DNA of 64,000 nucleotides, taken from NCBI GenBank assembly GCA_017542465.1, contig JAFXXB010000008.1:17321-81320 (forward strand), in the 5' to 3' direction. The notes under the pieces were generated by a model. That model made no database searches and was not told the DNA's origin. It saw only the letters and a list, made by a program, of their open reading frames with translations. How positions within the stretch are numbered: the stretch's first letter is position 1; each line of letters opens with the position of its first letter. This document shows, in pieces, positions 10,590 to 44,887 of this stretch. A program made the translations under genes and the position numbers. The DNA is from Bacilli bacterium. Lineage in GTDB: Bacteria; Bacillota_I; Bacilli_A; RF39; UBA660.

Positions 10590-10592
10590 TTA

Positions 10593-16629: not shown

Positions 16630-19600
16630 TTATCTTCTAAATGTTGACTTTATATCTTCTAATTCGTCATTTAATTCTTTTCTCAAAGATTCTTCATCTA
16701 CATTTGTTTTATCAATATCACGCTTCATTACACTAATGAAGAATGGATATCCATCAGTTCCATATATTCCAGAACCTTCAACAAAATTATATTTACCATA
16801 TTTATCAATAAAATATGGATTACTTAATATTTCATTTAGTCTATTCTTTTCTTCATCAGTTAAAGATAAATATGTATCAGACTCATCATCATTATGATCA
16901 TGATGAATTTGAATACCTTCTTTTAAATTCATTGCAGGTACTACTTCTTTACCGTTTTCATCTGTCATACCAGCATTTAATACATCAATGAATTGCATTA
17001 TTGATTTATCATAAGTGTTTACGTTTCCTTTTTGATTTTCTAGACTATCTCCATGAACATCATCAAATGAAACATATTCATCTTCATCAACTTCTATTGG
17101 TTCGTTATTACCAAACATTTCATCATATTCTTTTGCTTCCTTCTTAGTAACATAGAAATAATCATCTTTACTATTTAATACAAATAAATGCTCTAAATTA
17201 TCAATAGTTACTTTAGGTTTTAATGATGAAGATGTAATTTTTTTATTGAATTTTTCATCTAAATAATCTCTATTAATATTTTCCTTTTTAGAAGGAGATA
17301 TTTCAGAACCATCTAGATTTTTAGCAATAATCTTACCATTTTCATAATCAAATATTAATTTTAATTCATATTGACGAGCCATCTCTTTTAATTGACTCTT
17401 TTTAATAGCTACCATGATATCTTTAATACTAAATCCACCAGCAGCAGTTGTTACTAGAGCTCCACCGGCAGTAGCAGGAGCATTAACACTAGCAAGTCCA
17501 AATGCTGTTAATAACATACCAGCAATTCCTAATCCAATTTTTTCAACTGGAGGAATTCTTCTTGCTCTAACTTTAACCATTTCTCTTAATGCTGCTTGAT
17601 CTTCTTCAGTAGTTAAATGTATTTCTCTATCATCTACTTTTTCTTCAGGATGTAATAAAGCTCTAGCCATTTTCTCATCCTCAGCAGTATCTTCATATTC
17701 TTCAGATTCTAATAAATCTTCATCATATAACTCTTCTTCTACTTCTTCATAATCTTCAAGATCATCATCATATTCTTCATATTCTGTCTCAGTAGGTTCT
17801 TCTATTGTTTGTTCTGCTTTCTCAATAGGTTCATTTAATTCTTCTTGAACAAGTTCTTCTTTAACCTCTTCTTTAACTTCTTTTTGAGGTTTTGTAGTTT
17901 TTGTTTTTCCTTTAGTTGCATCATCAATCATTCTAATAATGTCGTTCATTTCATCTTCTTCAGAAGCGTATTGAATATCGTTATTTATATAATCTTCAAG
18001 ATCATTATTCTTTTCAGATGTTTCTGGAGAAGTTATTTCATGTATATTATTAGATTCTTTTTCTTCATTATTAACTGATACAGGAACAAATTCTTCTTCA
18101 TTAATACCTTCAACATTTATATCAGTCTTTAATTCTTCTGGAGTAAGAGAAGCATTTTTTTCCTTTTCCATTTCTTCTTTAACTTCAAACAAGACATCTA
18201 CAGCTGATTTTTCAGTTGGTTCTTGAGGTTTGGTTTCAAATGCTTGTGAATATTGTTCTTCACGATTTTGAACTACCTTTTCAGGTTCGTTTGATTCAAT
18301 TTCACCTTTTTCATCATATAATGACTTTTTTTGTAATTGTTCTTCAGTTAAAATTGGTTCATCAGGATTTGTTCTTTCAACATCTTTAAAATCATCTTCA
18401 GTTAATACATCCTCATCATCTTCTATAGGAATATTCTCTGATGGAGTATCTAACTCAACGTTTAAATCATCCTCTGTAACATATTCTCTTTCATCATCAG
18501 TCGATGATGATACTTCTTCACCAAATCTTTCTTTAATTTCTTCTTCAGTTATCGCTGGTTCTTCTTTTTCTTCATATTCTTCTCTAAGAGGAACATGTAC
18601 TATTTCAGGGACTGGAATAGTTTGTTCAATGTTTTGTTGAGCTTCTACAACATCTTCTTTTAATCTAGGAGCTCTAACTGGTCTTAATTCTCTATTTAAT
18701 AATCTAGAACGTCCTTCAGAAGGAGTTTCAGTATTTAATACTTCTTCAACAGGTTCTATAGTTCTACTGATTTCAGGTAAATCACGTAAAGGAGTTTTAA
18801 ATAACTTATTACTTAATGAATATGCTGAATCATGTCTATCTTTATAGAATTTAGTGAACTCTTTACTTTCATCATCAGTTAAACCAAGTTTTCCTTCAAT
18901 TGCAGCAATATAATAGTTTCTTAATGTAGATAAACCTAAGATAATACCATTAACATATTGTTTAACATGATCTTTAATAGTTTTAATCTTTTCTGCAAAA
19001 GTTTTAGGTTTTGATTCTTCCTTAACAACTGGAGTTTCAACTTTTTCATCTACTTTATCACCAGTAGCTCTCGCACTCATGTTATTTAAGAAATCATCAA
19101 ATTTATTGTCGCCTTTTAATACAGTATTCTCTGGTTGAATAACTGGTTTAGGTTCTTCAACCTTTTCTTCCTTAACTGGTTCTACAGTTGTTGATGGTTT
19201 AGATAATCCTAAATCACTTAGGAACATTTCATATTCAGGACCTACAGGTTCATATATATCTCTAGAATAAGCATATGCAATTTGTTCATCTGTTAATCTT
19301 GGATCCCATTTAGGTTCAGTCTTAGTTTCTACTTTAATTGGATCTAATCCATGTTCTCTTAAGAACATTTCATATTCTTGTCCAACTGGTTCATATATAT
19401 CTCTAGAATAAGCATCTAAGATTTGTTCTTCTGTTAATCTTGGATCCCATCCTGGTTTTGTATTATTTGTTTTTTCAACTACAACTGGTGTAGGTTTTAC
19501 TTCAGGTACAACTGGAGCAGATTTTACTTCAGGAGCACTGAATACTTCATCATAAGTAGGATTCTCAACTGGAGTTTCTTCTACTTCTTCAACAGTATTG

Positions 19601-20133
19601 ATAATTGGAGCTTCACTTACCTCAGCTGGTTCAATACCATATGCTTGATTTATAAAATTATTTAATTCAATTTTTGCGTCATATCTTTCTTGTTGAATAG
19701 TTGGTGTTGCTTCTATTTCTTTTCTACCATTTACTAATTGATCATCAATAATTTTCCAGTCAGCAAAAGTATCAGTAAGAATAGTACGATATTGTTCTAC
19801 CATTTCTTCATTATTACTTTTATTAATGAAGTTTAAGATTCCTTCAATTCTCTTATCAAAGAATCTCTTTACTTCTTCACTAGTAACATTCTTGTCGAAT
19901 CCATAATGTTCTAACACAAAATCAGCAACAGTCATAGAATCATCATTGATAAATTCTTTTGCATCACTTAACAATTGTAAGAATTCTTCATCTTCCTCAA
20001 AATTAGGATTATAGCCTAATAAAATATCTAAAGAACGAAGTTTTGCATTTCTCTCTTCTTTTGATAATCTCTCATCATCAATTATAATCTTTCTTAATTT
20101 TTCAACAGTTTCTTGTCTCATAAAATTCGCCAC
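16630..20133 (-). CDS. large acidic protein (1167 aa), function unknown. Carries a 40-aa tandem repeat and a single Ala/Gly-rich hydrophobic segment
   Basis: Long intact ORF. Glu/Asp-rich low-complexity regions. The unit KPGWDPRLTEEQILDAYSRDIYEPVGQEYEMFLREHGLDP occurs twice (nt about 19195-19458). A hydrophobic stretch IGLGIAGMLLTAFGLASVNAPATAGGALVTTAAGG lies at about 17414-17599. Confidence 0.6.
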   Translation of the reverse strand: MANFMRQETVEKLRKIIIDDERLSKEERNAKLRSLDILLGYNPNFEEDEEFLQLLSDAKEFINDDSMTVADFVLEHYGFDKNVTSEEVKRFFDKRIEGILNFINKSNNEEMVEQYRTILTDTFADWKIIDDQLVNGRKEIEATPTIQQERYDAKIELNNFINQAYGIEPAEVSEAPIINTVEEVEETPVENPTYDEVFSAPEVKSAPVVPEVKPTPVVVEKTNNTKPGWDPRLTEEQILDAYSRDIYEPVGQEYEMFLREHGLDPIKVETKTEPKWDPRLTDEQIAYAYSRDIYEPVGPEYEMFLSDLGLSKPSTTVEPVKEEKVEEPKPVIQPENTVLKGDNKFDDFLNNMSARATGDKVDEKVETPVVKEESKPKTFAEKIKTIKDHVKQYVNGIILGLSTLRNYYIAAIEGKLGLTDDESKEFTKFYKDRHDSAYSLSNKLFKTPLRDLPEISRTIEPVEEVLNTETPSEGRSRLLNRELRPVRAPRLKEDVVEAQQNIEQTIPVPEIVHVPLREEYEEKEEPAITEEEIKERFGEEVSSSTDDEREYVTEDDLNVELDTPSENIPIEDDEDVLTEDDFKDVERTNPDEPILTEEQLQKKSLYDEKGEIESNEPEKVVQNREEQYSQAFETKPQEPTEKSAVDVLFEVKEEMEKEKNASLTPEELKTDINVEGINEEEFVPVSVNNEEKESNNIHEITSPETSEKNNDLEDYINNDIQYASEEDEMNDIIRMIDDATKGKTKTTKPQKEVKEEVKEELVQEELNEPIEKAEQTIEEPTETEYEEYDDDLEDYEEVEEELYDEDLLESEEYEDTAEDEKMARALLHPEEKVDDREIHLTTEEDQAALREMVKVRARRIPPVEKIGLGIAGMLLTAFGLASVNAPATAGGALVTTAAGGFSIKDIMVAIKKSQLKEMARQYELKLIFDYENGKIIAKNLDGSEISPSKKENINRDYLDEKFNKKITSSSLKPKVTIDNLEHLFVLNSKDDYFYVTKKEAKEYDEMFGNNEPIEVDEDEYVSFDDVHGDSLENQKGNVNTYDKSIMQFIDVLNAGMTDENGKEVVPAMNLKEGIQIHHDHNDDESDTYLSLTDEEKNRLNEILSNPYFIDKYGKYNFVEGSGIYGTDGYPFFISVMKRDIDKTNVDEESLRKELNDELEDIKSTFRR

Positions 20134-25730: not shown

Positions 25731-25759
25731 TTGACTATAACTAATTATTTAGATATAAT
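25731..25759 (+). promoter_or_regulatory. sigma-70-type promoter for tRNA-Ser (TTGACT-17nt-TATAAT)
   Basis: -35 TTGACT at 25731-25736 and -10 TATAAT at 25754-25759, 12 nt upstream of the tRNA 5' end. Confidence 0.45.
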
Positions 25760-25771
25760 TATGTTTGTTAT

Positions 25772-25864
25772 GCAGCAGTACTCAAGAGGTCGAAGAGGGA
25801 TCCCTGCTAAGGATTTAGGCGGGCGAATGTTCGCGCGGAGGTTCAAATCCTCTCTGCTGCGCCA
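25772..25864 (+). tRNA. tRNA-Ser (anticodon GCU), class II tRNA with long variable arm, CCA encoded
   Basis: 7-bp acceptor stem GCAGCAG/CUGCUGC, discriminator G, 3' CCA. T-arm GGAGG-TTCAAAT-CCTCT. Anticodon stem GATCC/GGATT with loop CT-GCT-AA (U33, anticodon GCT, A37). Long variable stem-loop of about 21 nt. 93 nt in total. Confidence 0.9.
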
Positions 25865-25878
25865 TTAATTGAATAAAA

Positions 25879-25907
25879 AAGAAGATATTAATTATCTTCT
25901 TTTTTTG
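25879..25907. terminator. bidirectional rho-independent terminator (AAGAAGATA-TTAAT-TATCTTCTT, with an A-run 5' and a T-run 3')
   Basis: Perfect 9-bp stem flanked by AAAAAA and TTTTTTT. Shared by tRNA-Ser (+) and the convergent Cys-rich gene (-). Confidence 0.6.
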
Positions 25908-26091
25908 TTTCACAATTACATTCTTTGCATGCACATTCTTTTTCTTCAGAACAATTACATTCTTTGTTCTCTTCACATCCACATGTACATTCTTCATTGC
26001 ACTTACATTCACCTTCACAAGTACATTCTTTACCTTCTTGGCATCCACATGTGCATTCTTCAGTACAATTACACTTCTTTACTTCTTCCAT
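25888..26091 (-). CDS. small Cys-rich, Glu-rich protein (67 aa, 18 Cys); metallothionein-like candidate metal-binding protein
   Basis: AGGAGG RBS 8 nt upstream of ATG (MEEVKK...). Eight repeats of (K/E)EC-x-C, e.g. EECTCGC, KECTC, GECKC. The listed ORF start (MNRRLIM) is probably a false upstream extension. Confidence 0.55.
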   Translation of the reverse strand: MEEVKKCNCTEECTCGCQEGKECTCEGECKCNEECTCGCEENKECNCSEEKECACKECNCETKKEDN

Positions 26092-26101
26092 GATTAACCT
26101 C

Positions 26102-26650
26102 CTATTCATATATTCTTTCTAAATTAATATTTATTTTAGTTCCTGTTGATCTTATATTATCTGTATATTGATAATAATCATCACCAACATTAACTTTATT
26201 ATATTCATATATTTCTATCTTATCTAGGTCTAATCCTTCAATTTTATACATTCTAGGGTATTTCTTTACAACACTTATTAATAAATCTTCTAATGTATCA
26301 AATACATTATTATCAATTAGCCAAGATGATTCCATTAATACATATTTATTATCTTGTTCAACTACACAGAATGTATGTCTAGCAATCTTATTAGGTACAT
26401 CATATATAATATTATATTTTTTATATGATATGTTTTCTTTATCTAATAAGTAAGCTATTACTTCAGTTTGTTCATAACAAGTACCAACTTTATATTTTAA
26501 AGTATCATCAACACTCATTAATCTATAATTATCTAAATAATAATCTCTCTTTGCATTTTTATGAACAACTCCATCTGATGTAACAAAACCATAATGAATT
26601 TGTTTTATTTCATTTAATATATTTAATAACTTTTCATTCATATTAATCAC
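26102..26650 (-). CDS. hypothetical protein with transglutaminase/NAT-like Cys-His motifs (182 aa)
   Basis: Candidate nucleophile in GTCYEQTEVIAYLL and downstream IARHTFCVVE...ESSW. Resembles the papain-like Cys-His-Asp arrangement of transglutaminase-like proteins and arylamine N-acetyltransferases. Motif-level only. Confidence 0.35.
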   Translation of the reverse strand: MINMNEKLLNILNEIKQIHYGFVTSDGVVHKNAKRDYYLDNYRLMSVDDTLKYKVGTCYEQTEVIAYLLDKENISYKKYNIIYDVPNKIARHTFCVVEQDNKYVLMESSWLIDNNVFDTLEDLLISVVKKYPRMYKIEGLDLDKIEIYEYNKVNVGDDYYQYTDNIRSTGTKININLERIYE

Positions 26651-26670
26651 ATAATTATTATAACATAAAA

Positions 26671-26694
26671 AAGAAGATATTATTTTATCTTCTT
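26671..26694. terminator. rho-independent terminator (AAGAAGATA-loop-TATCTTCTT) after the giant gene
   Basis: 9-bp stem with a 6-nt loop, flanked by an A-run and a T-run. Confidence 0.5.
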
Positions 26695-29600
26695 TTATTC
26701 ATTAGGAATATTATTTATACCTATTTTATCTTTAGCATCTACCTTTTCACTTCTAAAGTTTACATTGTTGGCTTCTGCTATTTTATTTATATCTTGATAT
26801 TCTATTTCTCCTAATGGTAATACTAGTTTCTTGATATCTTCTTCACTTAATAATGACATCTTTTCACTTTCATCAAATACTTGGTTTACTCCTGGTATTA
26901 TCTTATTTCCTTCTTTTCTTGCATATACTCCACATGAGATGTGTCCTATATGTAAGTCTTTTGATACCATCTTTAATGTATCTATTAATACATATTTATT
27001 GTATACCTTATTTAAATCTATTGTTGGATAACTTGTTATTGTCTTATTTATATTATCCTTACTTACTTGAGTTATATCTTGTTCATATAAATCTATTCCA
27101 AGCTTATCACATACTTGTCTTGCATATGTTAATTGATCTAGATTCTTTCCATTATTGATGAATAATGCTGAAACTTTATAATTCTTTTCTTGTAGTAATT
27201 TAGCTGCTACTGCACTTCCTACACTTCCAGAGATTCCAATTAAGACTTTCTTTCTTAACAAGATTGGTAATAACCAGATTAATAATCCTATTATTCCTAA
27301 TCCTCCAATTACTGCTAGAACAATCCACCATGGGAATGGTTTTTTAACATGTATTTCAATGTCATCACCCTTAACCTCTTCTGTGGTTGTTCTTCTTCTT
27401 GTTGTTTCAGTAGTTTCTTCTGTTGTTGTTTCCTCTGTAGTTTCTTCCGTTGGTTTTGTTGTATCTGTTGGAGTTGAAGTTTTTCTAGGTGGTCGAGTTC
27501 CAGTTTCATTAGATGTACTTGAACTAGTTGTAGTTGTAGGTATTTCATCAAAGTATAACTTAAATACTGTTCCATCTTCTACTTCAGGATCTATTTCAAC
27601 TACTCCTCCATGAGAAGGTAATTGATTATCATTCATGAATACTCTTTTTAATGAGAATCCATCATATAAAGTATGAGCATTTTCAAAGTATTGTACATCT
27701 ACCTCTATCTTTTCATTAGATAATATTTGTACTTCTTTAGTCTTTTCAAATGAGTCCACTTTAGCAGTATTTTTATATAATTCTACCGTATATTTAATTG
27801 TTTTAACTTGATTATCATCAATAGATGAAGCAATATTTAATACACCATAGTTATGAGCAGTCATACCTATATTAATATCTTGATTAGTCCAAACAGATAA
27901 ATCTTCTTTTGTCTTAATTTTAGGATTATCAGTTAATGCAACTTTATTATCTAAATTATTAACTTGATATTCATTTGTTTTATAAGCAAAAGTTGGTTGA
28001 ATTAATGATTTAAAGAATCTAACAATTGCTTTACCAGCATTTGCAATAATATTTGATAATGAATTATCAGTAGATATAACCTGACCAGTAACTTTAGTAT
28101 ATGAATTACCAGTTATCGCTGCGGCACCTCTAATAATTGGTGAATTATTATTACATTTTCCTATTTCACCAATAATAAGAACACCTTGATTATCGATTAC
28201 AATACCATTTGCATTTTCCATTGAAGATGTATCATTTGGCTCTATTTCACCATTTGGATCATCAATAATAGTTAATGTACCTTGATTTATAATTCCTTTT
28301 TCAAGTCCATCAAAATTTAATGTATGACCTTCTAAAGCAAGTGTAATATTCACTGAACTTGGAATAGTTACAGTGCTTTCAACTAATACATCATTTCCGA
28401 CTTTGATTGTTCCAGTTTTATTTGTTTGTTCACTTATTACATCAATAACATCATTTAAAGAAGCAAAATATTGATTATTATACTCAAATGAATTATCTAA
28501 ATGAGACTCAACAGCTAAATAACTCTTATTTCCAGCTATAATAACATGATAATGTTCAGGAACATTATTAGCTAAACCACTTATAGGTGTATTTGGTGAT
28601 TCAAATACTCCATCATAGAAGTTAAACGTTCCATCTCCTTTATATAATCCAACATTTTTACCATAGAAATATGGTTTAGTTGTGCTTACTACTCCATCAT
28701 TAACTCCTATAGTCAACGTTGAAGATGCTGATTGTTTTATAGCATATATGTTATTTGCATCGCTAACAGATGAATTTGCATTTACTACTACATCATTTAA
28801 TAGCGTTACATTACTATTTCCTGATACTTCTATAAGGGCAGCATATGTGTTTAAATCACCGTTGATATTTGCTTTTTTAACTAACAATTGAGCGTAATCA
28901 CTAGTATTAATACCTGATACAGAACCATAAGTACATGTTAAATCTATATTAATATCATCAACAACAGTCTTTGAATTATATAAATCTAATGCTACACCAC
29001 CATTAGTAGTTGTCGTTGTATAATTCATGTGTTTAATATAAACGTTACTATATCCTTCAGCACGAATACCAACATTTTTATTAGTGTAAGTTATATTTTC
29101 AATATTTAAATCAGATGATTGACTTACTGTTATACCTCTTCCAACTGGGGATCCTGTTTGTTTAATTTCTCCATTCTTAACAAGAACTTCACTATTAAGA
29201 GTATAAATAAAGGAATCACTACCAGTATGGGTTACATCCATATCATTAATAACAATACTTCCTCTATGCAATAAACTCTTTTTATTATTTCCATCAATGA
29301 TTTGAACATCATTCAAATATGCTGAACCATTACAAACAACATGTAAATAATATTGACTTCCACCAGTTAAACTTGTTGTAAACTCTCCATATCTATCTAT
29401 TACATCAGTTGTATACACAGGAGTAGCTAATGTTGTAGGAGGTTCTACACTATCGGTAATATAGAATTTATAAGTTGTTTTGGCTAAAGAATTAAATAAT
29501 ACTTTTATTTCTAATGTATTGGAATAATCTCTCAAATCAATAGGTATATAATATGATGTCCTACTATAGCTATCAATTACACCATTTGTAATACTTATAT

Positions 29601-32600
29601 CATATCCATTGGTCTTAGTTGGTATGTCAGGATCTGCTATTGAATATACCATAGGTGTGGCAGTTCCACCTTTAAATACCGGATTGTTAAATTCAACGTA
29701 ACCACCCACATTATAAACAGCCTTACCAAATGCATCATCATATTTATCAGCTCTATCATTAACTGATAATTCAACACCATTTAGATATAATTTAGCATCT
29801 CTTTTATTTGTTATTAATCTAGACTTATCATAACCATTTGTACTAAGAGACAAATTATTTCCTAAAGTCATAGTATTCTCATTACTTAATATAGGATTAG
29901 AATTTAGTCCCAATGTTACATTCATTGAACCATTATTAATATCTAATATACCTTTATTAGTTATATATTTATCATCTTTTGATGATATAGTTTTTGAGTT
30001 TAAATCTAAAATAATATTCTTATTATTATTTATAGTTACACTTTCATATAGTGAAAAATCATTTAGTATTTTTAAATTACATACTTGATTATCAGGGCAA
30101 GAATTAATAGCATCTTGTAACTTATTAAATTCTATATTATCATCTACATTTAATACATTATTACCTTTAGTTAATGTCCAAGTAATATATGATTCTTCAC
30201 TTCCTTTATTAAGGATATAACCATTAGGAATATTATTAAGACCATAATCATATATCTTTTTACCTTTTAGTATTCCATCATAGAAATCAAATCTCGTATT
30301 CATTCCACGTAATGTTTCTACTTGACCAAATATTAATGGAGAAGTTGTACTTACATGACCATCCTCATCTGTATCATCATTAGTTATTGTTATATTAGCA
30401 TTAACATCATCACTTACATAGATACCATAAACATTTGAAATAACTGATGTATTAATAATTTTTTGTTCATGTTCATTATCAACATAAATACCATAAGCTC
30501 TTTCATTTGGTCCAGTTACATTTATAGTTGAATTAGAAATTACCGCTTTAGAATTATCATCAATAAACACACCACGATTATATGAATCCCAATGAGACGT
30601 AGATAAAGTAATATTTGTATTATTAATATTAGCTACTGCTCTATCATGTAAATATATACCATTAATTCTATCAAATAATCCCTCACCATTTACAATACTT
30701 ATATTAAAACCATCAGTATTAACAATACCATTAGCAGCTTCTATACCATTTGGGTAATAATTACCTTTGTTATTATATATTTCACCACCAAAGCCATTAA
30801 ATACAGCATAACTTTCGACTAATACACTTGTGTTTTTATTTAAAATCTTTCCACCTGTCATATTAACCACAGCAGAATAACCTTCGCGAATTCCAGTTCC
30901 ACCTGTTGAATTTGTTGAATTTGTAATAATTCCACCTTGATAATCTATAATGCTATTTTCACTAAATAGAATCTCACCATCACCAGCATCCTTATAATCA
31001 ACATTCTTAACTACCACATTACCATGATTAATTAAATCAATTATTTCACCATTATATTCAATATTAATATTTATAATATGATGATCACTTCCATATGTAG
31101 ATCCAAAGTGTAAATAGTATTTTTCTCCACCTTGAATAGTTGTTGAATATGATTGAACACTATATGATTTATTACTATCATTATCATTTACAAAAGGAGT
31201 ATCAGCTGATGTAGGTGCCGTTGAAGTTTTAGTAATCCAAGCCTTAATTTTATAACCACCTAGTGATATATTTGAGAAGTTTAATTTAACCTCACCATTA
31301 TAATCAGTTAAATCTAAAGGTAAGCATCCAGATGATCCCCAATAATCTAAATTAATTACACCATTTTTATAAGTAATATCACCTGAATTATAAACAAAAT
31401 TATCCATTTCAACTGGTTTAGCCATTGTATAAATACCACTTGTTGCACCCGATATAGTTTTAGATTTCATTATTGCACCATCAATTTCAACATAACCACC
31501 TATGTTTTTAATTAATGTTCCATCATTTCTTACTTTATTTATATTAGATTTACCACCATTATTTATTAATGTTGCATTATTAATCAAATATAGTTTACCA
31601 GTTTGATTATTTGTAATTAAAGTAGATTTAATAACTTCATAGAAATTAAGTGTTGCACCATCTATCGTTAAAACACCATTATTTTCTATAATAGTTGCAA
31701 AATCAGATGCAGATTCACTATCTAGTAATCCATTCTTAAATGTTATAATACCATTGTTTAAAATATTATATGAATCACTAGTTGTAATTTTCAGATTATT
31801 TAAATCAAAACTAATATTCTTTGTATTTTTAATTTCCAATTGATATCCTAATGAAGTTTGATATAAAAGTTTCAAATTACATAATGTATCTTTTGGACAA
31901 TCATCAACTGCTTTTTGTATTTTTGAATATTTTACACCAGTATCAATATTTTCAACTAAATCCAACTTTTGTAGAACAACAGTATTTAAGTTTCCATCAG
32001 TACCATAAACTAAATCATAATCTTCAGGTCTATCTGATACACCACCATATATTTGAGTTTCACCTTTGATAATACCATCGTAGAAATTAAAGGTTCCGGC
32101 CTTATGATAAATACCATAAGTAGTACCAGATACAACTGGTGTTGTTTGACTTACATCATCATCATTATTTGATAAAGTTATAGTAGAATCACTGTTTTCG
32201 TAAGTTATAATTCCATATACATTCGTAGTACCATTTGCAATTATAGATGATGAATTAACATTTAAATACATAGCTTCAGTTAAACGAACGCCGTATAGAT
32301 TTTTTGAATTTGAACTACCTGTAATATTAATTGATGTATTATTTAAATTAACATAACGAGGAACATATGGATAACCATATTCTGTATCTATACCATATAA
32401 ACTTCCACCGCCACTTAAATTAATACTTCCACCATTCATCGTTAATTTATTTCTATTAGGTCTTACATATATACCTCTAGAATTACTATTAGAATTTGAT
32501 GTTATATTAATATCATCAATATCAACTATTGATTCATCCATATATAATCCAATAAAATCATTTTGTTTAGTATCATCAACAATATCTAAACCATTAATAT

Positions 32601-35600
32601 AACCATATGAACCTGATGAAAATTTTATTGGTTGGTCTTTGTTATATATCAAACCACCTGATGTATATAGTCTTGATCCATGATTAAGTAATATACCTGT
32701 TCCATATCTACTTGTTGTACTATTCTTAATAATACCATCATTGAATGTAAATTTGCCATTATTTAGAATAATTGATGGATTAGTTCCCTTTTCAATCAAG
32801 GTTAAATCATTGGCTACGATATTACCTACATTAAATAAGCTTTTTTCATTATTATTTTGAGTAATAATTATATCTCTAAATACTAATTGACCACTCTCAA
32901 AAACAAAATAATAATTCTTTCCACCCATTACAGTTGTAGATGCAAAACCAATTTCACTCTTATTATTTGAATAGAATTCAGTTAAATTATCTAAATCTTC
33001 ACCTATATAAAATTTAAAACTATCATCAGATAAAGTATTATAATCAATTTTTATCTCAACATTTCCAGAATAATCAGATAAATCAATTGGTAAATAACCA
33101 TGTCCAGTATAATATGTTTTTACAATGCCATTCTCATATGTATAATTATCACCAGATAATTTAGTGAATTTAGGAGGTATTGCTATACCATATATAGCGT
33201 TTGCACTTGCATTTTTACTACTCTTTGAGTAAACATTCATTGTTCCACCATTAATTTCTGAATATCCACCCTCATTATATAAAATATAACCATCTATATT
33301 CCCACCATCAAAGTCATTAATTTGATCATATGTTCCGTCATTTATATATAATTTACCAGTATAATTGTTTTTAAACACTCTAAGGAATCTATAAGTTCCC
33401 GTAGACATTTTCGTATTTTCTCCATTAACGGTCATAATATTATTATTTTCAAATAAAGCTTGCATACTATTAGCTGAAATATTAGATACATCTATATTAT
33501 TAACAGTTACATTACCATTATTTAATAATCCGCTTGTTCTATTAAATTCAAATATTATTTTACAATCACTTATATTTAATGTGTTATTATTAATAATTTG
33601 ATGAGATTTAATTAAACCTTTATTTTCACTATTATCAACTATATTTAATACTCCATTATTAATCAAACCAGCACCTAAATATAAGTTTTTACCATTTAAA
33701 TCAATAGTTATATTTTGACTGTTCTTAATTGTATTTGAATAGTTAGCCATTTCATATAGATTATCAGCTAATACTCTTAATGTCCCAGAATCACCAATAC
33801 TAGTTAATGCATTTCCTATAGAAGAATACATAATTCCTGATTCAACATGTAAAACATTATTTTGTTTTTCCTTAGTTTGTTTAATGAATTTATAATTATC
33901 ATCACTGCCATTCAATAAATAGTATGATTCTTCAATATCATTAATCAAAGTATATGATGCTTCATTTTTACCATATATAATTCCATCATAAAAATTAAAC
34001 ATAGCGGTTGGAGAATAGACACCATATCTTTCCGATTTAATATATCCGGCTTTATCATTATAAACACCATTTTGAGTTCCATAATATATAGTTCCAGAAC
34101 CTGTATTATATATACCATCTGTAACAAATTTAACATGATCAGTAGATTGATTAATAGAAACATCATTAAGATAAATAGGACCGCTACCAACATTATATAT
34201 TCCTCTAATAAGTGATAAAGGTGTTGGTTCAGAATCAAAGAATGAAGCTGCTTGTCCTGTTTCATTTATTGTAACTTGATTTAGTATCAATGTTGATTCA
34301 TTACTCTTTTTTATAGCAGAATATGGATTTATAGGAATCCAACGAGTTTTTGTAGTAATATTTGAATTCATTATGACATTATTAAAAGTTGTTAAACCTG
34401 TATTATCAATATTAATTTGTTGATATGCATTATGATATAATTCTTTTTCATAATTAAATGTAGAATCTGATACAGTTACTGGAAATCTAGATGTATTATT
34501 AAAATCTCCCGTAAACGTAACATGACTTGCGTTAAATGTATAATTATTTTCTACATTATTAATTATTCCACCATTAACATTTATATAAGCCAAATCTTTA
34601 ATGCCATAAGTAGCATCATATACATCTTCATTAGTTATTTGATCAATAGTACCATCTTCTATATTAATTTTTGATTTATAATTATATACCTCATCAATAG
34701 TTCCACCATTAATATAAATTAATCCTTGATTTCTAGCACCAACTCTAGCATTAAAAGTTCCGTTATTAATAGTTATTTTAGCATTATCATTATTGACTAC
34801 AGATTGAGAACAAGACAAAGTTCCACCATTGATTACGATATTGTCAGAAGCAGATGTATTTGATAAACAATAATATGCATTTGATAATTCTCCATCATTT
34901 ATAGTTAGATGACTAATGCTTGTTTCATATGGTATTAATTCAACTTCCTTAACGGTAAATGTGTTTTCACCTGGGCGTGCATCTTTTGTTAAAGGATAAT
35001 ATATATGTAGATATATCTTTCCATCTCTGACTATTCCATCTCTTTCAGCTATTTGATCTCCTCTAGTTTCCCATAAATCAGAACCACCAGTAACAGGATA
35101 GTCACTTGATGAAATATTAACTCGAGCAACTGCATGAACAGGAGCTACGTGATTATATGTTATTCTTGCTTTTACTTTAGTTCCATTTGGTATACCATTT
35201 GTATCTAATTCAACTAATGCATACGCATTTTTTCCTGGATCTAAACTATTATTTGATACTAAATAACCATCTTCATTTACATTAAAACCATAATCAAAAT
35301 CATATTGGGTTTTATTATAAAATGAAGTATATGTTTTTTTGGCACTTTCAACTAGATTATTAGTGTAATAATCATCATTCATTATAGAATAACCAGATGA
35401 ATCATAATAATATGTACAATGAGCTCCTTGAATTAAGCCACCATTTACAGTCACAGATCCACCATTATTTTCTAATGCACCTCGACATCCAGTATTTCCT
35501 CCTCTAGTTGAAATAATGGATCCTCCATTTATTGTGATATTTGCATCATGTTCATTATAAATAACTTGTGTAATCTCTGTTTGATATACACCATTATCTA

Positions 35601-37665
35601 TAGTTAAATCTGCGCCCGTTTTATTATATATAGCATATGAATAAACATTATACTCTTTAAAAAATACAGTTTCACCAGTTGAATCTCTTAACTCAAGTTT
35701 TCCAGAATTTGTAATTAATGGTTGTTTTACTGAATTGACAAGTTTATAACTATTCATATCAAGTAATATATTCTTAGTATTATCAATTTCAATTGTGTGA
35801 TCTTTTGTTAAATCTTTAACAACATCTATTTCAATTTGAGTAGTTGAATCACCTTTATATTTATTTGCAGCTTCAATTGCATCTTCAAGTAGTGTATATC
35901 TAGTTTTACCGATTAAAGCTTCAATATTAGATACTAATTCTAATGACATTTTATATCCATTTTCATCAGCAAGAGTACTTGGATCATATAAAGGAGGAGT
36001 ATCATTTACAGCTCCATCAACTGCTACTCTACCAATTATAATACCATCATAATAATTAAATTCTCCATGTTCATCGACAAAAACTCCGCCATCCTTACCA
36101 TAAATATAAGGAGAATTATGATCAGGATACTCAATATGTGCCATATCAGTTGAATTATCTTGTCCTACATTTAATATACCATTATTGTCAATTTTAATTG
36201 CATAATTATTATCACTAGTTACTTTACCAGTACTACTTCCGTGATTATACTTACTTATATCAAAAGTTGTATCACTAAAATAATCATTTAGATTTAATTT
36301 ATCATCAATTATCTTTAATTTCGCTCCATCATTAATCTTAATAGTAGAATCATATTTTGTCGAATGAACATTATAACCATTTAAATCCAATGTTAGGTTA
36401 ACACTTTCTACATCTAAATGTTGATTAGTTATGTCATATTCTATTTGAGCAATTATCTCATCGTCACTTGTAATTCCATTATTAATTAAATCATCATGAA
36501 ATGCTTTTAACGAATAATACTCTCTACCTATTAATTCCGCTTTTGGTGAAGATAAAATTAATATAACTGGTTCTAATTCTATAGGATCTATTTCAGTAAT
36601 ATTTCTTTGTTCAATTGAATAGTTTCCTGCATTATCATATGCATGAAAATAATATGTAGCATTTTCATTTACAGTTACAGAATATGTATTATCACCTGTA
36701 GCAGCAATATAATCATCATCGGATATAACTGACGAAATTGAAAAAGCATATTTACTAATTCCGGATTTACCATTTTCCAAAGTAGCATTTTGATCAACAA
36801 TAGAATAAGAAATTGTAGCTTCATCATGAGTAGCATTTAAAGTGACACCATTGATAATTATACTAGGTTTTAATTTATCAATATTTGTAATATGAAGAAC
36901 AGATATCTTAGAATATCCATCTGTTTTATATTTAGATTTGGCATATAAATAACCATTAGTACTTACCTTTAAATAATTATTCTTATCATATACGACAAAA
37001 TTCTTGGAACTTAATTCTTCATCGCTTAATTCAGTAGTTGAATAATAATATGATATTTCAACATCCTCATTAGCTCTAAGTTTAATTTTATCCTCATTAT
37101 CAGTATATAAAAAAACTATTTTATCATTATCAGATAAAGAAACCTCTTTATTATCACTATCATATAATTTATCTATAAAAGCATGTAAATTATCTTGATA
37201 ATCTATTTTTATAATAGCCTTGCTATATGAAGATTTTAAGCCTTCTCTTTTTTCTGTTGGTATAATAGTAATATCATAAGTGTTACCTTTTTCAATGCCA
37301 TCTAATTTGACTATTACACCATCACCATCTAACACAATTTTATTATTAGGAGCATCAATTATTTCATGCGTATTTACATTCAAATATTGAATAGTTATTT
37401 CTGATGGTGCAGATATTTTGACTTCATTTCCATCAATATTCTCTTTAGATTCATGATCTAAGTACTCTAGAATAAAAGATACACTTGTAGGATTATCTTC
37501 TCCATCAACAAAAGCAGATATGTTATTCATACCTTCATCTAGAGAATAAGATTTATCAAAAAGTTTACTACCCAAAAAAGATAATAGTATTACTATTAAT
37601 AATATAGGTATGACTGTAAAAAGTAATTTTTTAGGTATATTCTTCTTGTCTTTCATTCTAGTCAC
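26695..37665 (-). CDS. giant modular cell-surface protein (3656 aa): signal peptide/anchor, five beta-helix-like modules, Thr-rich stalk, C-terminal TM helix, cytoplasmic degenerate MnmA-like domain
   Basis: Uninterrupted 10.97-kb ORF. N-terminal KK + hydrophobic signal. Asn/Gly/Thr/Tyr-rich segments with recurrent NxG(T/S)(L/I) rungs typical of right-handed beta-helices. The motif F(N/D)(F/Y)YDG(I/V) recurs five times, at nt about 36043-36060, 33978-33995, 32075-32092, 30278-30295 and 28608-28625. TT(E)-rich linker at about 27360-27530. TM WWIVLAVIGGLGIIGLLIWLL at about 27262-27335. C-terminal 215 aa resemble the MnmA N-terminal domain. Confidence 0.8.
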   Translation of the reverse strand: MTRMKDKKNIPKKLLFTVIPILLIVILLSFLGSKLFDKSYSLDEGMNNISAFVDGEDNPTSVSFILEYLDHESKENIDGNEVKISAPSEITIQYLNVNTHEIIDAPNNKIVLDGDGVIVKLDGIEKGNTYDITIIPTEKREGLKSSYSKAIIKIDYQDNLHAFIDKLYDSDNKEVSLSDNDKIVFLYTDNEDKIKLRANEDVEISYYYSTTELSDEELSSKNFVVYDKNNYLKVSTNGYLYAKSKYKTDGYSKISVLHITNIDKLKPSIIINGVTLNATHDEATISYSIVDQNATLENGKSGISKYAFSISSVISDDDYIAATGDNTYSVTVNENATYYFHAYDNAGNYSIEQRNITEIDPIELEPVILILSSPKAELIGREYYSLKAFHDDLINNGITSDDEIIAQIEYDITNQHLDVESVNLTLDLNGYNVHSTKYDSTIKINDGAKLKIIDDKLNLNDYFSDTTFDISKYNHGSSTGKVTSDNNYAIKIDNNGILNVGQDNSTDMAHIEYPDHNSPYIYGKDGGVFVDEHGEFNYYDGIIIGRVAVDGAVNDTPPLYDPSTLADENGYKMSLELVSNIEALIGKTRYTLLEDAIEAANKYKGDSTTQIEIDVVKDLTKDHTIEIDNTKNILLDMNSYKLVNSVKQPLITNSGKLELRDSTGETVFFKEYNVYSYAIYNKTGADLTIDNGVYQTEITQVIYNEHDANITINGGSIISTRGGNTGCRGALENNGGSVTVNGGLIQGAHCTYYYDSSGYSIMNDDYYTNNLVESAKKTYTSFYNKTQYDFDYGFNVNEDGYLVSNNSLDPGKNAYALVELDTNGIPNGTKVKARITYNHVAPVHAVARVNISSSDYPVTGGSDLWETRGDQIAERDGIVRDGKIYLHIYYPLTKDARPGENTFTVKEVELIPYETSISHLTINDGELSNAYYCLSNTSASDNIVINGGTLSCSQSVVNNDNAKITINNGTFNARVGARNQGLIYINGGTIDEVYNYKSKINIEDGTIDQITNEDVYDATYGIKDLAYINVNGGIINNVENNYTFNASHVTFTGDFNNTSRFPVTVSDSTFNYEKELYHNAYQQINIDNTGLTTFNNVIMNSNITTKTRWIPINPYSAIKKSNESTLILNQVTINETGQAASFFDSEPTPLSLIRGIYNVGSGPIYLNDVSINQSTDHVKFVTDGIYNTGSGTIYYGTQNGVYNDKAGYIKSERYGVYSPTAMFNFYDGIIYGKNEASYTLINDIEESYYLLNGSDDNYKFIKQTKEKQNNVLHVESGIMYSSIGNALTSIGDSGTLRVLADNLYEMANYSNTIKNSQNITIDLNGKNLYLGAGLINNGVLNIVDNSENKGLIKSHQIINNNTLNISDCKIIFEFNRTSGLLNNGNVTVNNIDVSNISANSMQALFENNNIMTVNGENTKMSTGTYRFLRVFKNNYTGKLYINDGTYDQINDFDGGNIDGYILYNEGGYSEINGGTMNVYSKSSKNASANAIYGIAIPPKFTKLSGDNYTYENGIVKTYYTGHGYLPIDLSDYSGNVEIKIDYNTLSDDSFKFYIGEDLDNLTEFYSNNKSEIGFASTTVMGGKNYYFVFESGQLVFRDIIITQNNNEKSLFNVGNIVANDLTLIEKGTNPSIILNNGKFTFNDGIIKNSTTSRYGTGILLNHGSRLYTSGGLIYNKDQPIKFSSGSYGYINGLDIVDDTKQNDFIGLYMDESIVDIDDINITSNSNSNSRGIYVRPNRNKLTMNGGSINLSGGGSLYGIDTEYGYPYVPRYVNLNNTSINITGSSNSKNLYGVRLTEAMYLNVNSSSIIANGTTNVYGIITYENSDSTITLSNNDDDVSQTTPVVSGTTYGIYHKAGTFNFYDGIIKGETQIYGGVSDRPEDYDLVYGTDGNLNTVVLQKLDLVENIDTGVKYSKIQKAVDDCPKDTLCNLKLLYQTSLGYQLEIKNTKNISFDLNNLKITTSDSYNILNNGIITFKNGLLDSESASDFATIIENNGVLTIDGATLNFYEVIKSTLITNNQTGKLYLINNATLINNGGKSNINKVRNDGTLIKNIGGYVEIDGAIMKSKTISGATSGIYTMAKPVEMDNFVYNSGDITYKNGVINLDYWGSSGCLPLDLTDYNGEVKLNFSNISLGGYKIKAWITKTSTAPTSADTPFVNDNDSNKSYSVQSYSTTIQGGEKYYLHFGSTYGSDHHIININIEYNGEIIDLINHGNVVVKNVDYKDAGDGEILFSENSIIDYQGGIITNSTNSTGGTGIREGYSAVVNMTGGKILNKNTSVLVESYAVFNGFGGEIYNNKGNYYPNGIEAANGIVNTDGFNISIVNGEGLFDRINGIYLHDRAVANINNTNITLSTSHWDSYNRGVFIDDNSKAVISNSTINVTGPNERAYGIYVDNEHEQKIINTSVISNVYGIYVSDDVNANITITNDDTDEDGHVSTTSPLIFGQVETLRGMNTRFDFYDGILKGKKIYDYGLNNIPNGYILNKGSEESYITWTLTKGNNVLNVDDNIEFNKLQDAINSCPDNQVCNLKILNDFSLYESVTINNNKNIILDLNSKTISSKDDKYITNKGILDINNGSMNVTLGLNSNPILSNENTMTLGNNLSLSTNGYDKSRLITNKRDAKLYLNGVELSVNDRADKYDDAFGKAVYNVGGYVEFNNPVFKGGTATPMVYSIADPDIPTKTNGYDISITNGVIDSYSRTSYYIPIDLRDYSNTLEIKVLFNSLAKTTYKFYITDSVEPPTTLATPVYTTDVIDRYGEFTTSLTGGSQYYLHVVCNGSAYLNDVQIIDGNNKKSLLHRGSIVINDMDVTHTGSDSFIYTLNSEVLVKNGEIKQTGSPVGRGITVSQSSDLNIENITYTNKNVGIRAEGYSNVYIKHMNYTTTTTNGGVALDLYNSKTVVDDINIDLTCTYGSVSGINTSDYAQLLVKKANINGDLNTYAALIEVSGNSNVTLLNDVVVNANSSVSDANNIYAIKQSASSTLTIGVNDGVVSTTKPYFYGKNVGLYKGDGTFNFYDGVFESPNTPISGLANNVPEHYHVIIAGNKSYLAVESHLDNSFEYNNQYFASLNDVIDVISEQTNKTGTIKVGNDVLVESTVTIPSSVNITLALEGHTLNFDGLEKGIINQGTLTIIDDPNGEIEPNDTSSMENANGIVIDNQGVLIIGEIGKCNNNSPIIRGAAAITGNSYTKVTGQVISTDNSLSNIIANAGKAIVRFFKSLIQPTFAYKTNEYQVNNLDNKVALTDNPKIKTKEDLSVWTNQDINIGMTAHNYGVLNIASSIDDNQVKTIKYTVELYKNTAKVDSFEKTKEVQILSNEKIEVDVQYFENAHTLYDGFSLKRVFMNDNQLPSHGGVVEIDPEVEDGTVFKLYFDEIPTTTTSSSTSNETGTRPPRKTSTPTDTTKPTEETTEETTTEETTETTRRRTTTEEVKGDDIEIHVKKPFPWWIVLAVIGGLGIIGLLIWLLPILLRKKVLIGISGSVGSAVAAKLLQEKNYKVSALFINNGKNLDQLTYARQVCDKLGIDLYEQDITQVSKDNINKTITSYPTIDLNKVYNKYVLIDTLKMVSKDLHIGHISCGVYARKEGNKIIPGVNQVFDESEKMSLLSEEDIKKLVLPLGEIEYQDINKIAEANNVNFRSEKVDAKDKIGINNIPNE

Positions 37666-43144: not shown

Positions 43145-43726
43145 TTACTGACCATCATTATTACGTGTTCTTTTTAATATCTTAACATTATCTTCTGTAA
43201 CATCTTTAAAGTTTACTTCTAATCCATCTATTCCACGTATATCTCTATAGTTTACACATTCTACTCCACATTCTTTAAACATAATTAATACACTTTCAAC
43301 ATCTTCTTTAATAGATTCACTCATTCTATAGTCTAAATAAACTACTTTTTTTACTCCTCTATGTATCATTTGTTTAGCACAGTTAGAACATGGAAATAAT
43401 GTAACATAACATGTAGAATTAGTATAATCTTTTTCTTTTAAACCATCTATTTCTCCATGAATAATATATGGATATTTAGTATTATGTAATTCCTTAGCTC
43501 CACCTTTAAACGGAAATGTATTTATATTCCATTTATAAGGTGAATGATTATATCCAAATGAAATGAATTCACCATCTTCACTTACATAACAAGCACCAAC
43601 TCTTGTTGATGGATCATTACTTCTAAGTGATGCTACTCTTGCAATCATCATCCAGTAATCATCTTCATTAAATTCTAATTCTCTAGCTCCACCTTTATAT
43701 TCATCTGATATTTTATAATCATTCAT
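43145..43726 (-). CDS. dCMP deaminase (ComEB-like) / cytidine-deoxycytidylate deaminase family
   Basis: Zinc-binding motifs HGE (HGEIDG) and PCxxC (PCSNCAKQM) with correct spacing. 193 aa. Confidence 0.6.
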   Translation of the reverse strand: MNDYKISDEYKGGARELEFNEDDYWMMIARVASLRSNDPSTRVGACYVSEDGEFISFGYNHSPYKWNINTFPFKGGAKELHNTKYPYIIHGEIDGLKEKDYTNSTCYVTLFPCSNCAKQMIHRGVKKVVYLDYRMSESIKEDVESVLIMFKECGVECVNYRDIRGIDGLEVNFKDVTEDNVKILKRTRNNDGQ

Positions 43727-44382
43727 CTTGCTTTACCTCTTCCTATGATGTGCTCTTTAATTATATCACGATATCTATCATTAAGTGATTTATAATGTTG
43801 TTCCTCTTCTTCAGGTGTTCTTTCTGCAAAGTACTTTTCAGCATCTAAATCATAACTAATACATTCTAGTATACCACCTTTTAAATTCACTCTTTTACAT
43901 TTATTAACAGTTAAAAGAAATTCTTCTTCCTCAATAGTATCTGATGTAACATTACCATTTTCATCTATTACACATACACCTGTGTAATAATGAGCTAAGC
44001 TTCTACCATTATATTCTTTTAATTTATTAATATAATAGTTTAATATCTCATCATCAGATAATCCTTCTTTTCCATTTACTCTTTTAACATATAAGCCTGG
44101 TTGTTCATCTTCTCTAAATTTATCTATATATAACCCTGAATCTTCTGCTATTGTTGGAATACCTGTAGCATCATAATAAGCTTGAGCTTTAATCGTTGCA
44201 TTTTCTTCTGCAGTTCTTCCATTTTCATCTACATCTATATGTACACCTAACATTTTAGGATTAACTAATTCTAATTCTTCAAAACAAGATAATCTATCTT
44301 GCATTAATTTAAATTTAAAATCATTTCCTGTGGCGAACAATAACTTCATCTTCTTCAACACCTTCCCAATAATCTTCATCAT
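43723..44382 (-). CDS. Ham1/RdgB-family non-canonical NTP pyrophosphatase (ITPase-like)
   Basis: LLFATGNDFKFK (RdgB has ATGNxGK), ENAxxKA and PTIAEDSGL...PGLY (RdgB has ADDSGL...PG). The true start is probably the internal Met (MKLLFATGN), removing most of the 62-nt overlap with the NUDIX gene. Confidence 0.5.
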   Translation of the reverse strand: MMKIIGKVLKKMKLLFATGNDFKFKLMQDRLSCFEELELVNPKMLGVHIDVDENGRTAEENATIKAQAYYDATGIPTIAEDSGLYIDKFREDEQPGLYVKRVNGKEGLSDDEILNYYINKLKEYNGRSLAHYYTGVCVIDENGNVTSDTIEEEEFLLTVNKCKRVNLKGGILECISYDLDAEKYFAERTPEEEEQHYKSLNDRYRDIIKEHIIGRGKAR

Positions 44383-44887
44383 TCAAGGGTAATTCAATAC
44401 CATCTTCTTCATCATATTCAACTATATCATTTTTAGTTGGAACATTTATTTTCTTTTTAGAAGGAAAATATCTATAACCAACTGTTTCCTTAAGTGCTTC
44501 TACTACTTTTATATCAGCTGGTAACCAATCTAATTCTTCTAAATCCTCTAATTCTAACCATATTAAGTTATCATGTTCTAAATGATTATTATCATGATAT
44601 ACAAAATTAATATCATTCTTTAATGTACATAGATATACATCCATATCAAGTACAAAATCAGGATAATCATATTTTACATTCATATAAGGACTAACATAAT
44701 AAAGATCTGCATTTAATTCTTCCTTTATTTCTCTAATTACTGCTCCTTTAGAAGTTTCACCATCTTTTATTTTACCTCCAGGAAACTCCCATTTACCTTT
44801 AAAATCACCATAGCCTCGTTGAGCCGCTAATATACATCCGTCTTTTCCTATAATAGCTGCTGCAACATAAATTGTTTCTTTCTTCAT
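44321..44887 (-). CDS. NUDIX hydrolase (MutT-like)
   Basis: Nudix box GGKIKDGETSKGAVIREIKEELNA (Gx5Ex7REUxEExGU). Confidence 0.7.
   Translation of the reverse strand: MKKETIYVAAAIIGKDGCILAAQRGYGDFKGKWEFPGGKIKDGETSKGAVIREIKEELNADLYYVSPYMNVKYDYPDFVLDMDVYLCTLKNDINFVYHDNNHLEHDNLIWLELEDLEELDWLPADIKVVEALKETVGYRYFPSKKKINVPTKNDIVEYDEEDGIELPLNDEDYWEGVEEDEVIVRHRK

Follow-up and report, generated by a model that had tools for sequence, protein, structure and literature searches.

We analyzed a 64,000-nucleotide stretch of contig JAFXXB010000008.1 (the window), from an uncultured "Bacilli bacterium" metagenome-assembled genome (MAG), which encodes a giant surface protein of 3,653 amino acids (aa; NCBI record MBR6072845.1, locus tag IKP76_00810). 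Our analysis identified the part of this protein that follows its C-terminal transmembrane (TM) helix, hereafter the tail, as the N-terminal PP-loop/HUP domain of the tRNA-thiolating enzyme MnmA, in a form that has lost its catalytic residues and its tRNA-binding domains. Together with the TM helix and the segments just before it, the tail makes up a cassette that recurs on other surface proteins, and that stands in the window where a positional ortholog carries a sortase-type sorting signal. We consider it fairly probable that this cassette is a sortase-independent membrane anchor, whose globular domain would act inside the cell as a retention or docking knob for several surface proteins. Related contigs stem from several further metagenome samples, one of which is labelled STEW19; judging from the sample names, the source habitat is presumably the rumen.

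A sequence-only reading of this stretch had described the tail as a degenerate, truncated MnmA PP-loop domain and had named a profile search as the way to check it, and profile, sequence and fold searches all bear this out. The Pfam family PF03054 (tRNA_Me_trans HUP domain) matches the tail with 58.7 bits (E 8.2e-16; cutoff 20.6) over positions 1-195 of its 202, and no other Pfam family passes its gathering cutoff anywhere in the giant protein (3,656 aa scanned). The NCBIfam equivalog models for MnmA match as well, aligning to only the first ~188-193 of their 345-351 positions, where the protein stops, and with scores that miss the equivalog threshold (NF001138, 67.7 bits vs a cutoff of 284; TIGR00420, 57.3 vs 236.95). 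A phmmer search of PDB sequences recovered E. coli MnmA (2DER; E 2.5e-15) and, at ~3e-9, its counterparts from B. subtilis and S. pneumoniae; the closest true MnmA is the protein P0008, whose genomic context offered no clue. In an AlphaFold2 (AF2) model of the TM helix and tail, built from a 46-sequence alignment, the helix leads into an alpha/beta domain of Rossmann-like fold (predicted local distance difference test, pLDDT, 92.8; predicted TM-score, pTM, 0.84). In a Foldseek search of the PDB with this model the best match was MnmA (root-mean-square deviation, rmsd, of 2.0 Å across 182 columns), and the top five matches were all MnmA/TrmU structures (rmsd 1.9-2.7 Å), with LarE, NAD synthetase, TtuA, ThiI, GMP synthetase and QueC trailing by eight orders of magnitude. 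These matches lie far past chance and confirm that the tail is the MnmA N-terminal PP-loop/HUP domain. The motifs of the tail follow the same order as the MnmA blocks, as had been read from the sequence; the length given there (~215 aa) had counted in the TM helix, and the MnmA-like part itself amounts to ~185 aa (aa 3469-3653).

For the catalytic residues, numbering was checked against E. coli MnmA, with an alignment offset that reproduces D99 and C102. The PP-loop S13-G-G-V-D17-S18 (SGGVDS) reads SGSVGS in the window copy, a decay already noticed in the sequence and confirmed in our alignments; Asp17 is replaced by Gly here and by Ser or Val in relatives. The PP-loop Asp binds Mg-ATP and is needed for activity. 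The TPNPDILCNK block has become TIDLNKVYNK, with Asn for Asp99 and Tyr for Cys102, and this Tyr is invariant throughout the family. Likewise, KDSxGICFI has become KDKIGINNI, with Asn for Cys199, and the protein stops three residues later. The earlier claim that both catalytic Cys are lost therefore stands, with two corrections: its pairing of PNPDILCN with PTIDLNKV was off by one, and the Cys199 position is kept and substituted rather than deleted. Other changes in the window tail include ATGHY to SCGVY, KDQSYFL to FDESEKMSLL, and FPVGEL to LPLGEI. None of the family members retains Asp17, Cys102 or Cys199, and the window copy has also lost Asp99. According to a 2024 review, D99A, C102S/A and C199A variants are unable to thiolate tRNA, under the persulfide and the [4Fe-4S] models alike (PMC11784392).

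The central (PF20259) and C-terminal (PF20258) tRNA-binding domains are missing from the window copy, as the sequence-only reading had stated for the C-terminal half, and no remnant of them occurs downstream in the window; nor was a second mnmA found anywhere within its 64 kb. In total, the window tail misses four of the five testable features that define the MnmA enzyme family, all except the N-terminal HUP homology, which is why it should not carry the annotation MnmA. By every sequence criterion the tail appears catalytically dead as a tRNA-thiolating enzyme, in line with its earlier description as a pseudo-MnmA.

The giant protein has just two hydrophobic segments in a hydropathy scan (aa ~6-34 and ~3440-3473), and its 3' end encodes, in order, the last ectodomain residues (...GTVFKLYFDEIP), a stretch of 54 aa rich in Thr, Glu and Pro, the juxtamembrane motif EVKGDDIEIHVKKPFP, the helix WWIVLAVIGGLGIIGLLIWLLPILL, RKK, 183 aa and the stop codon. 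Since basic residues precede the first helix and RKK follows the second, the positive-inside rule predicts that the N-terminus lies inside, ~3,400 aa outside, and the tail (186 residues behind the TM helix, 183 behind RKK) in the cytoplasm. In this topology the Thr-rich stretch would form a stalk that spans the cell wall. No strong internal repeats were detected in the ectodomain by blastp at E 1e-5. The G+C content of the window is 24-33% throughout, and the region of the giant gene is no different.

The frame of 26695-27894 (reverse strand) translates without interruption (...TTETTRRRTTTEEVKGDDIEIHVKKPFPWWIVLAVIGGLGIIGLLIWLLPILLRKKVLIGISGSVGSAVAAKLLQ...IGINNIPNE, then stop), and no stop codon or frameshift separates the TM segment from the MnmA-like region, an interruption to which the earlier claim had been left open. 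It is barely credible that the fusion of surface-protein and mnmA-like sequence stems from an assembly chimera or a sequencing frameshift that brought two separate genes together. Such an artefact might be suspected from the MAG contigs that break inside the tail, with P0004, P0002 and P0156 partial at contig ends, and from contig L002 (1 kb, 1.5x coverage), where the sequence that precedes the cassette is unrelated and out of frame. However, the exact 3,653-aa product is present on 5 contigs, and the frame continues across the junction in L030, L002, L013, L011 and P0004, which come from different samples and represent three different ectodomain contexts (L030 and L002 are related-strain contigs of 95-97% DNA identity; L013 is a JGI contig). 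Comparison with orthologous giant genes, which the sequence-only reading had proposed, in this way finds the junction again in independent assemblies and in paralogs. Also speaking against an artefact, the MnmA homology starts 1-2 residues past the TM helix, and no start codon with a Shine-Dalgarno sequence is present between the TM helix and the tail. The KK of RKKVLIGISG lines up with the KK at the start of native MnmA (KKVIVGMSGG), suggesting that the enzyme's own N-terminus provides the stop-transfer charge.

An internal start that would yield a free tail was considered as well and judged unlikely, as the lone start-like codon is a TTG in LLRKK without a Shine-Dalgarno sequence; the gene caller chose this codon solely on the truncated contig L002. 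It should be noted that the supporting contigs are partly short and of low coverage, that L002 looks chimeric upstream of the cassette, and that contig L012 carries frameshifts. In L002 (positions 1-248) and L030 (positions 1-141), both short and of low coverage, the cassette is 95-97% identical to that of the window and the upstream sequence is different and partly out of frame, with a stop directly before VKGDD in L002. These upstream differences probably reflect chimeric assembly within the low-complexity stalk, a real rearrangement being the other possible cause.

To find further bearers of the cassette, we performed an exhaustive HMMER search of 1.84 billion representatives, which gave 585 hits (a word-indexed protein search gave just 2 relatives). 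Only six of these outscore ordinary MnmAs, with 112-194 bits against at most 68 bits. When GTDB species representatives were scanned with peptides from the tail, the only matches were chance ones to TM helices of unrelated phyla; the source species is either missing from that set or different at the words used. As far as the 1.8 billion representatives show, the dead-MnmA cassette is limited to one narrow clade of uncultured Bacilli. Its bearers fall into at least three genomic contexts, referred to as loci A, B and C (Table 1). The window MAG alone holds IKP76_00810, the giant paralog IKP76_00650 (P0004) and two further partial tails. All bearers have the same order of a Thr/Pro-rich stalk, the motif [RK][RK]xTTT..EVKG[DE][DE], a TM helix and a pseudo-MnmA, and in all of them Asp17 is lost and Tyr stands at position 102, suggesting that the cassette arose once. 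Three contigs of the window MAG (those of P0004, P0002 and P0156; L001:1, L029:1) end or begin in the tail at the same residue (QVCSKLGIDLYEQ...). Taking into account that the cassette copies are nearly identical, these ends are best explained as short-read assembly breaks, implying at least three copies of the cassette.

The bearers differ in how much of MnmA they keep. Behind the same stalk and TM helix, L012 (90-1455) carries a dead MnmA of full length, with all three domains (HUP, M and C) retained. This contig is the locus B ortholog, whose Obg, Smr and PfkB are 97%, 98% and 84% identical to their counterparts on L001. The L012 tail (3.5x coverage) is broken by one frameshift at ...MIDGK(N/Y), and the same junction reads in frame in L031/P0006 (L031:73-1212), a contig that has a scaffold gap. 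Thus L012 and L031 keep the M and C domains, P0005 keeps HUP and M, and the window protein, P0002, P0156 and L013 keep HUP only. The sequence-only reading had offered, as one option, that the tail is the fossil of an ancestral fusion to mnmA; the full-length dead MnmA of L012/L031 lends support to the fusion, while the purifying selection described below goes against a mere fossil. A further protein, P0007 (131 aa, on a 572-bp contig), keeps the canonical ATGHYA beside the pseudo-type FDESDKLSLL and KIGANNIP, and may be an intermediate state.

We also considered locus B, where the tail is followed by a TPR protein, PfkB and Obg in L001/L012, as the native site of mnmA. This was rejected by the more distant relative L034 (3152-6574), in which a class II aminoacyl-tRNA synthetase precedes TPR (627 aa)-PfkB-Obg-UvrD-L32, with neither mnmA nor a giant gene. 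Since this block lacks both, the giant gene and cassette at locus B are a lineage-specific insertion.

A search with the last 450 ectodomain residues identified two homologs, P0163 and P0164, whose C-termini consist of ...GTLFKLYYGQTKGDEIELINPKTG, a hydrophobic helix, KYIKH or KHIKK, and 6-12 residues before the stop. The contig of P0163 (L036:1671-3815) represents the positional ortholog of this locus (window 25815-26695): the 179-aa gene downstream has 71% amino acid identity to the window ORF (open reading frame) 26102-26650, a 67-aa gene is also common to both, and by blastn L036 aligns from ~3000 onward to the window from 26695 downward with 79% identity. Its giant gene ends ...TKGDEIELINPKTG-TM-KYIKHMTMKEDTI and stop, as P0164 does similarly, and L036 has neither the Thr stalk nor the MnmA domain. 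NPKTG belongs to the motifs that class B sortases recognize (PMC11987632; PMC5118464). Because the positional ortholog ends in NPKTG, a TM helix and a short tail, the cassette stands where a sortase-type signal sits.

Comparison of the two genes indicates what has changed. The juxtamembrane EVKGDDIEIHVKKPFP of the window protein corresponds by homology to TKGDEIELINPKTG in the orthologs, and IEIHVKKPFP stands where P0163 and P0164 have IELINPKTG, so that the sortase pentapeptide is lost. Relative to L036, the window gene has a Thr-rich stalk inserted, the NPKTG motif replaced, and the short basic tail swapped for the MnmA domain; the Thr/Glu/Pro stalk is found in every tail-bearing relative and is absent from the NPKTG-bearing L036. 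Two features of a sorting signal are present in the window gene, namely the helix and the basic cluster (WWIVLAV...LPILL, RKK), and two are absent, namely the pentapeptide and the extreme C-terminal place. On this comparison, we read the juxtamembrane-TM-basic part as a degenerate sortase signal. Since the pentapeptide is lost and the signal is not C-terminal, sortase processing of the window protein is unlikely.

Selection on the tail was estimated as the ratio of non-synonymous to synonymous rates (dN/dS) by the Nei-Gojobori method, with paralogs compared over the tail only. The ratio is 0.08-0.13 among three close strains (~9-12 synonymous vs 4-6 non-synonymous changes), 0.20 for P0002 vs P0156, and 0.3-0.4 between paralog tails that are 65-78% identical; by the same method the neighboring genes give 0.08 (Smr), 0.20 (PfkB) and 0.48 (TPR). 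In addition, at a genomic GC content of 26%, ~185 codons have stayed open in five or more copies whose identity has fallen to 40%. The two giants of the MAG (the window protein and P0004) are 40% identical overall and 25-66% over the ectodomain (25-35% in its middle), the best-conserved parts being the tail (68%) and the TM helix with the juxtamembrane segment (74%). Taken together, these values indicate a tail under purifying selection rather than a mere fossil. Within the IKP76-like set, the tails of the three loci (A, B and C) share 68-78% identity with one another and just 41-46% with same-locus tails in sample ERZ14210018; this greater likeness to other loci than to positional counterparts suggests recombination or concerted evolution of the cassette.

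In the explanation that we favor, the last ~280 residues would form a C-terminal anchoring cassette of stalk, juxtamembrane motif, TM helix and folded non-catalytic domain. It would have originated when a surface-protein gene ending in NPKTG, a hydrophobic helix and a short basic tail was fused directly to an mnmA coding sequence, with the KK of the MnmA N-terminus taking over as stop-transfer charge. The fused MnmA would then have lost the PP-loop Asp, the catalytic Cys and, in most copies, the M and C domains, and duplication and recombination could have spread the cassette to paralogous and unrelated surface-protein genes. The giant protein would be neither cleaved by sortase nor linked to the wall, and would remain embedded in the membrane, with the Thr-rich stalk carrying the ectodomain through the wall, as a membrane-tethered protein would need. 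The compact ~21-kDa cytoplasmic domain would not thiolate tRNA and would act as a retention or docking knob, which may touch a common partner in the cytoplasm or, with its still glycine-rich loop, a nucleotide.

Some of our observations weigh against this explanation. The direction from NPKTG to cassette is read from one ortholog and one similar fragment. No sortase is present among the annotated ORFs of the window, where no search was aimed at sortase genes. The neighboring genes differ at every cassette locus, so they give no operon clue. For the most distant pairs of tails dN/dS is 0.3-0.6, with dS near saturation, which denotes moderate constraint only, and the likeness of paralog tails could reflect gene conversion instead of selection. 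Finally, the stepwise C-terminal truncation (full length, HUP and M, HUP only) resembles decay. A rival view is that the tail is a neutral passenger, the decaying remnant of an accidental read-through into mnmA that is tolerated as a harmless extension and homogenized by gene conversion. The loss of all catalytic residues, the successive truncations, the restriction of the family to a handful of sequences, and the contrast between orthologous-locus tails (46% identical) and Obg (97%) would all fit. We nevertheless regard this account as doubtful, as an AT-rich genome closes random frames fast and the ~185 codons remain open, the strain-level dN/dS is low, the tail is better conserved than the ectodomain, and both the hydrophobic core and the glycines at turns are kept in a domain that AF2 models with confidence.

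Another view, that the tail is still a membrane-tethered, minimal MnmA-like enzyme that adenylates or thiolates with non-canonical residues or a separate subunit, can appeal to the persistence of the fold and of several substrate-cleft motifs, and to the ATGHYA of P0007. It is very improbable given the replacement of Asp17, Cys102 and Cys199 in all members and of Asp99 in the window copy, a full MnmA equivalog score 4-fold under its cutoff, and the absence of the anticodon-arm-binding domains; single substitutions at 99, 102 or 199 abolish the activity of the E. coli enzyme (PMC11784392). A tail that binds ATP, AMP, adenylate, tRNA or a desulfurase, and couples the cytoplasm and the giant adhesin in either direction, is a close variant of the anchor from which these data do not separate it, and we hold such a sensor or signaling role to be possible but not probable. 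In its favor, the glycine-rich loop and the next helix are conserved in all members as [SG]G[SG][VI]xS-xVAAKxLQ, many family-invariant residues fall on MnmA motif positions, namely Gly14, Ser18, Phe36, Gly127, Asp150 and Pro169-Gly171-Glu172 of E. coli MnmA, the cleft motifs LP[LI]GE and FDE[ST] are conserved, the fold is confidently kept in the AF2 model, and the invariant Tyr at the Cys102 position looks like a new constraint, not drift. A docking surface for desulfurase could also persist, given that B. subtilis MnmA receives sulfur straight from the desulfurase (PMC11784392). On the other hand, the PP-loop Asp is lost in every member, the window copy lacks the M and C tRNA-binding domains, and no output domain or partner gene is linked to the cassette. 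Combining the anchor with such binding, we tentatively suggest that an exapted tRNA-thiolation domain may have become a shared, sortase-independent cytoplasmic docking platform (for a nucleotide, tRNA or a desulfurase?) that couples a set of adhesin-like proteins to the cytoplasm, physically or through regulation, in a lineage that may have lost MnmA activity.

Table 1. Features of the giant surface-protein gene in the window, and loci that carry the cassette.
Feature	Position	Strand	Basis or context
Giant surface-protein gene	26695..37656	-	probable ATG at 37656; in-frame GTG further upstream at 37665, to which the ORF list extends
N-terminal signal/anchor helix LLFTVIPILLIVILLSFLG, aa 11-29	37570..37626	-	hydropathy scan; preceded by the basic MKDKKNIPKK
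Ectodomain of ~3,340 aa, rich in Asn, Ile, Thr, Ser and Gly	27541..37569	-	no Pfam match
Thr/Glu/Pro-rich low-complexity stalk, aa 3373-3426, ending RRRTTTE	27379..27540	-	sequence
Conserved juxtamembrane motif EVKGDDIEIHVKKPFP, aa 3427-3442	27331..27378	-	family sequences
C-terminal TM helix WWIVLAVIGGLGIIGLLIWLLPILL, aa 3443-3467	27256..27330	-	hydropathy; AF2 helix at model residues 16-39
Pseudo-MnmA HUP/PP-loop domain, aa 3468-3653, predicted cytoplasmic	26698..27255	-	profile, sequence, AF2, Foldseek; dN/dS 0.08-0.41
Degenerate PP-loop SGSVGS	27214-27231	-	inside pseudo-MnmA domain
Cys102 position (Tyr)	within 26995-27018	-	inside pseudo-MnmA domain
Cys199 position (Asn)	within 26707-26733	-	inside pseudo-MnmA domain
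Stop codon of giant gene	26695..26697	-	DNA homology to tail-less ortholog L036 restarts exactly here
Locus A (window)			htpG, giant gene, 182-aa ORF, DHH gene
Locus B			second giant P0004 (3,570 aa, partial, IKP76_00650, same MAG); tail continues in P0002 or P0156
Locus B, contig L001			P0002 (IKP76_00200) tail, then TPR protein-PfkB-Smr-Obg
Locus C			unrelated 1,069-aa MucBP-like P0005 (L011) and relative L013; rplI and dnaB adjoin

Around the giant gene, the window includes the housekeeping genes lepA, nrdD, hrcA-grpE-dnaK-dnaJ, smc, rnc, htpG, nusB and recD2. Just downstream of the tail, positions 25733-26683 (~950 bp, with the 182-aa ORF 26102-26650 and small ORFs) are absent in the strains represented by L030 and L002, where the stop codon of the tail lies directly next to the convergent DHH-family gene, at its 3' end. 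No family could be convincingly assigned to the 182-aa protein. The window encodes another large secreted protein (1,924 aa; 56095-61869, reverse strand), which harbors seven Listeria-Bacteroides repeats (PF09479), divergent InlB B-repeats and two DUF6273 domains, and has neither a C-terminal TM helix nor the pseudo-MnmA cassette.

The region 50614-55959 (reverse strand) encodes a SufS-family cysteine desulfurase (54751-55959), a NifU_N/SufU-like protein (54329-54751), a 458-aa ORF (52887-54263) and RecD2/YrrC (50614-52806). The idea that this region is an emptied iscS-mnmA-recD2 slot was withdrawn, as the desulfurase is of the SufS type with a SufU-like partner, not of the IscS/YrvO type. The 458-aa ORF has no Pfam or NCBIfam hit; in its C-terminal half, motifs resembling those of protein kinases can be seen by eye (GGGLSRV..KVIKLG, DIKESN and LDADF). 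Elsewhere on the reverse strand, we identified two tandem M3/PepF-like oligopeptidase genes (8835-12389), a run of nucleotide-sanitizing genes (43145-44887; dCMP/cytidine deaminase-like, Ham1/ITPase and NUDIX), and a 1,167-aa ORF (16630-20133) between the hrcA operon and smc that has no Pfam match at E <= 0.001.

The sequence-only reading knew of no described precedent for this architecture, and our literature search on pseudo-MnmA or TM-anchored MnmA agrees with it, having returned nothing relevant. We regard the cassette as a new domain architecture and its tails as a candidate new pseudoenzyme family. A core RNA-modification enzyme has here been turned into a structural, non-catalytic domain in an unrelated setting, the cytoplasmic tails of surface proteins, and three stages are visible: the NPKTG-bearing positional ortholog, the full-length dead MnmA tail, and the trimmed HUP-only tail of the window. 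If the tail has a partner or ligand, this family would provide a new anchoring or signaling module for Gram-positive-type surface proteins. On the practical side, a PF03054 match in such genomes must not count as evidence of MnmA activity, and the repeated cassette breaks MAG assemblies.

Compared with known systems, the tail is closest to MnmA/TrmU itself (PF03054, PF20259 and PF20258; PDB 2DER and 2HMA), to which the HUP domain is homologous over its full length, with ~31% identity to E. coli MnmA in the Foldseek alignment. In contrast to these enzymes, the window domain is attached to a TM helix, behind an ectodomain of 3,400 aa, and its catalytic residues are replaced. With sortase sorting signals (LPXTG; NPKTG/NPQTN for class B) the window protein shares the tripartite arrangement of juxtamembrane motif, helix and basic cluster, and its EVKGDDIEI resembles TKGDEIELINPKTG; it differs from them in having HVKKP for the pentapeptide, 185 folded residues after the signal, and an added Thr-rich stalk of ~55 aa.

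The S. aureus protein Ebh combines an N-terminal signal with a huge ectodomain, ends in one TM helix and a cytoplasmic segment, and is not anchored through LPXTG. The window protein, whose topology is predicted only, matches this plan. We detected no sequence relationship between the two, and the FIVAR, GA and DUF1542 domains were not found in the window protein by Pfam; moreover, the cytoplasmic part of Ebh consists of basic repeats instead of a globular pseudoenzyme. Another parallel is found in HUP domains of the universal stress protein (USP) type, which sit on the cytoplasmic side of transporters or kinases and regulate membrane proteins. As in those fusions, a non-catalytic, Rossmann-like HUP domain that possibly binds a ligand is predicted to lie in the cytoplasm on a membrane protein, but the domain of the window protein derives from a tRNA-modification enzyme and is carried by an adhesin-like giant.

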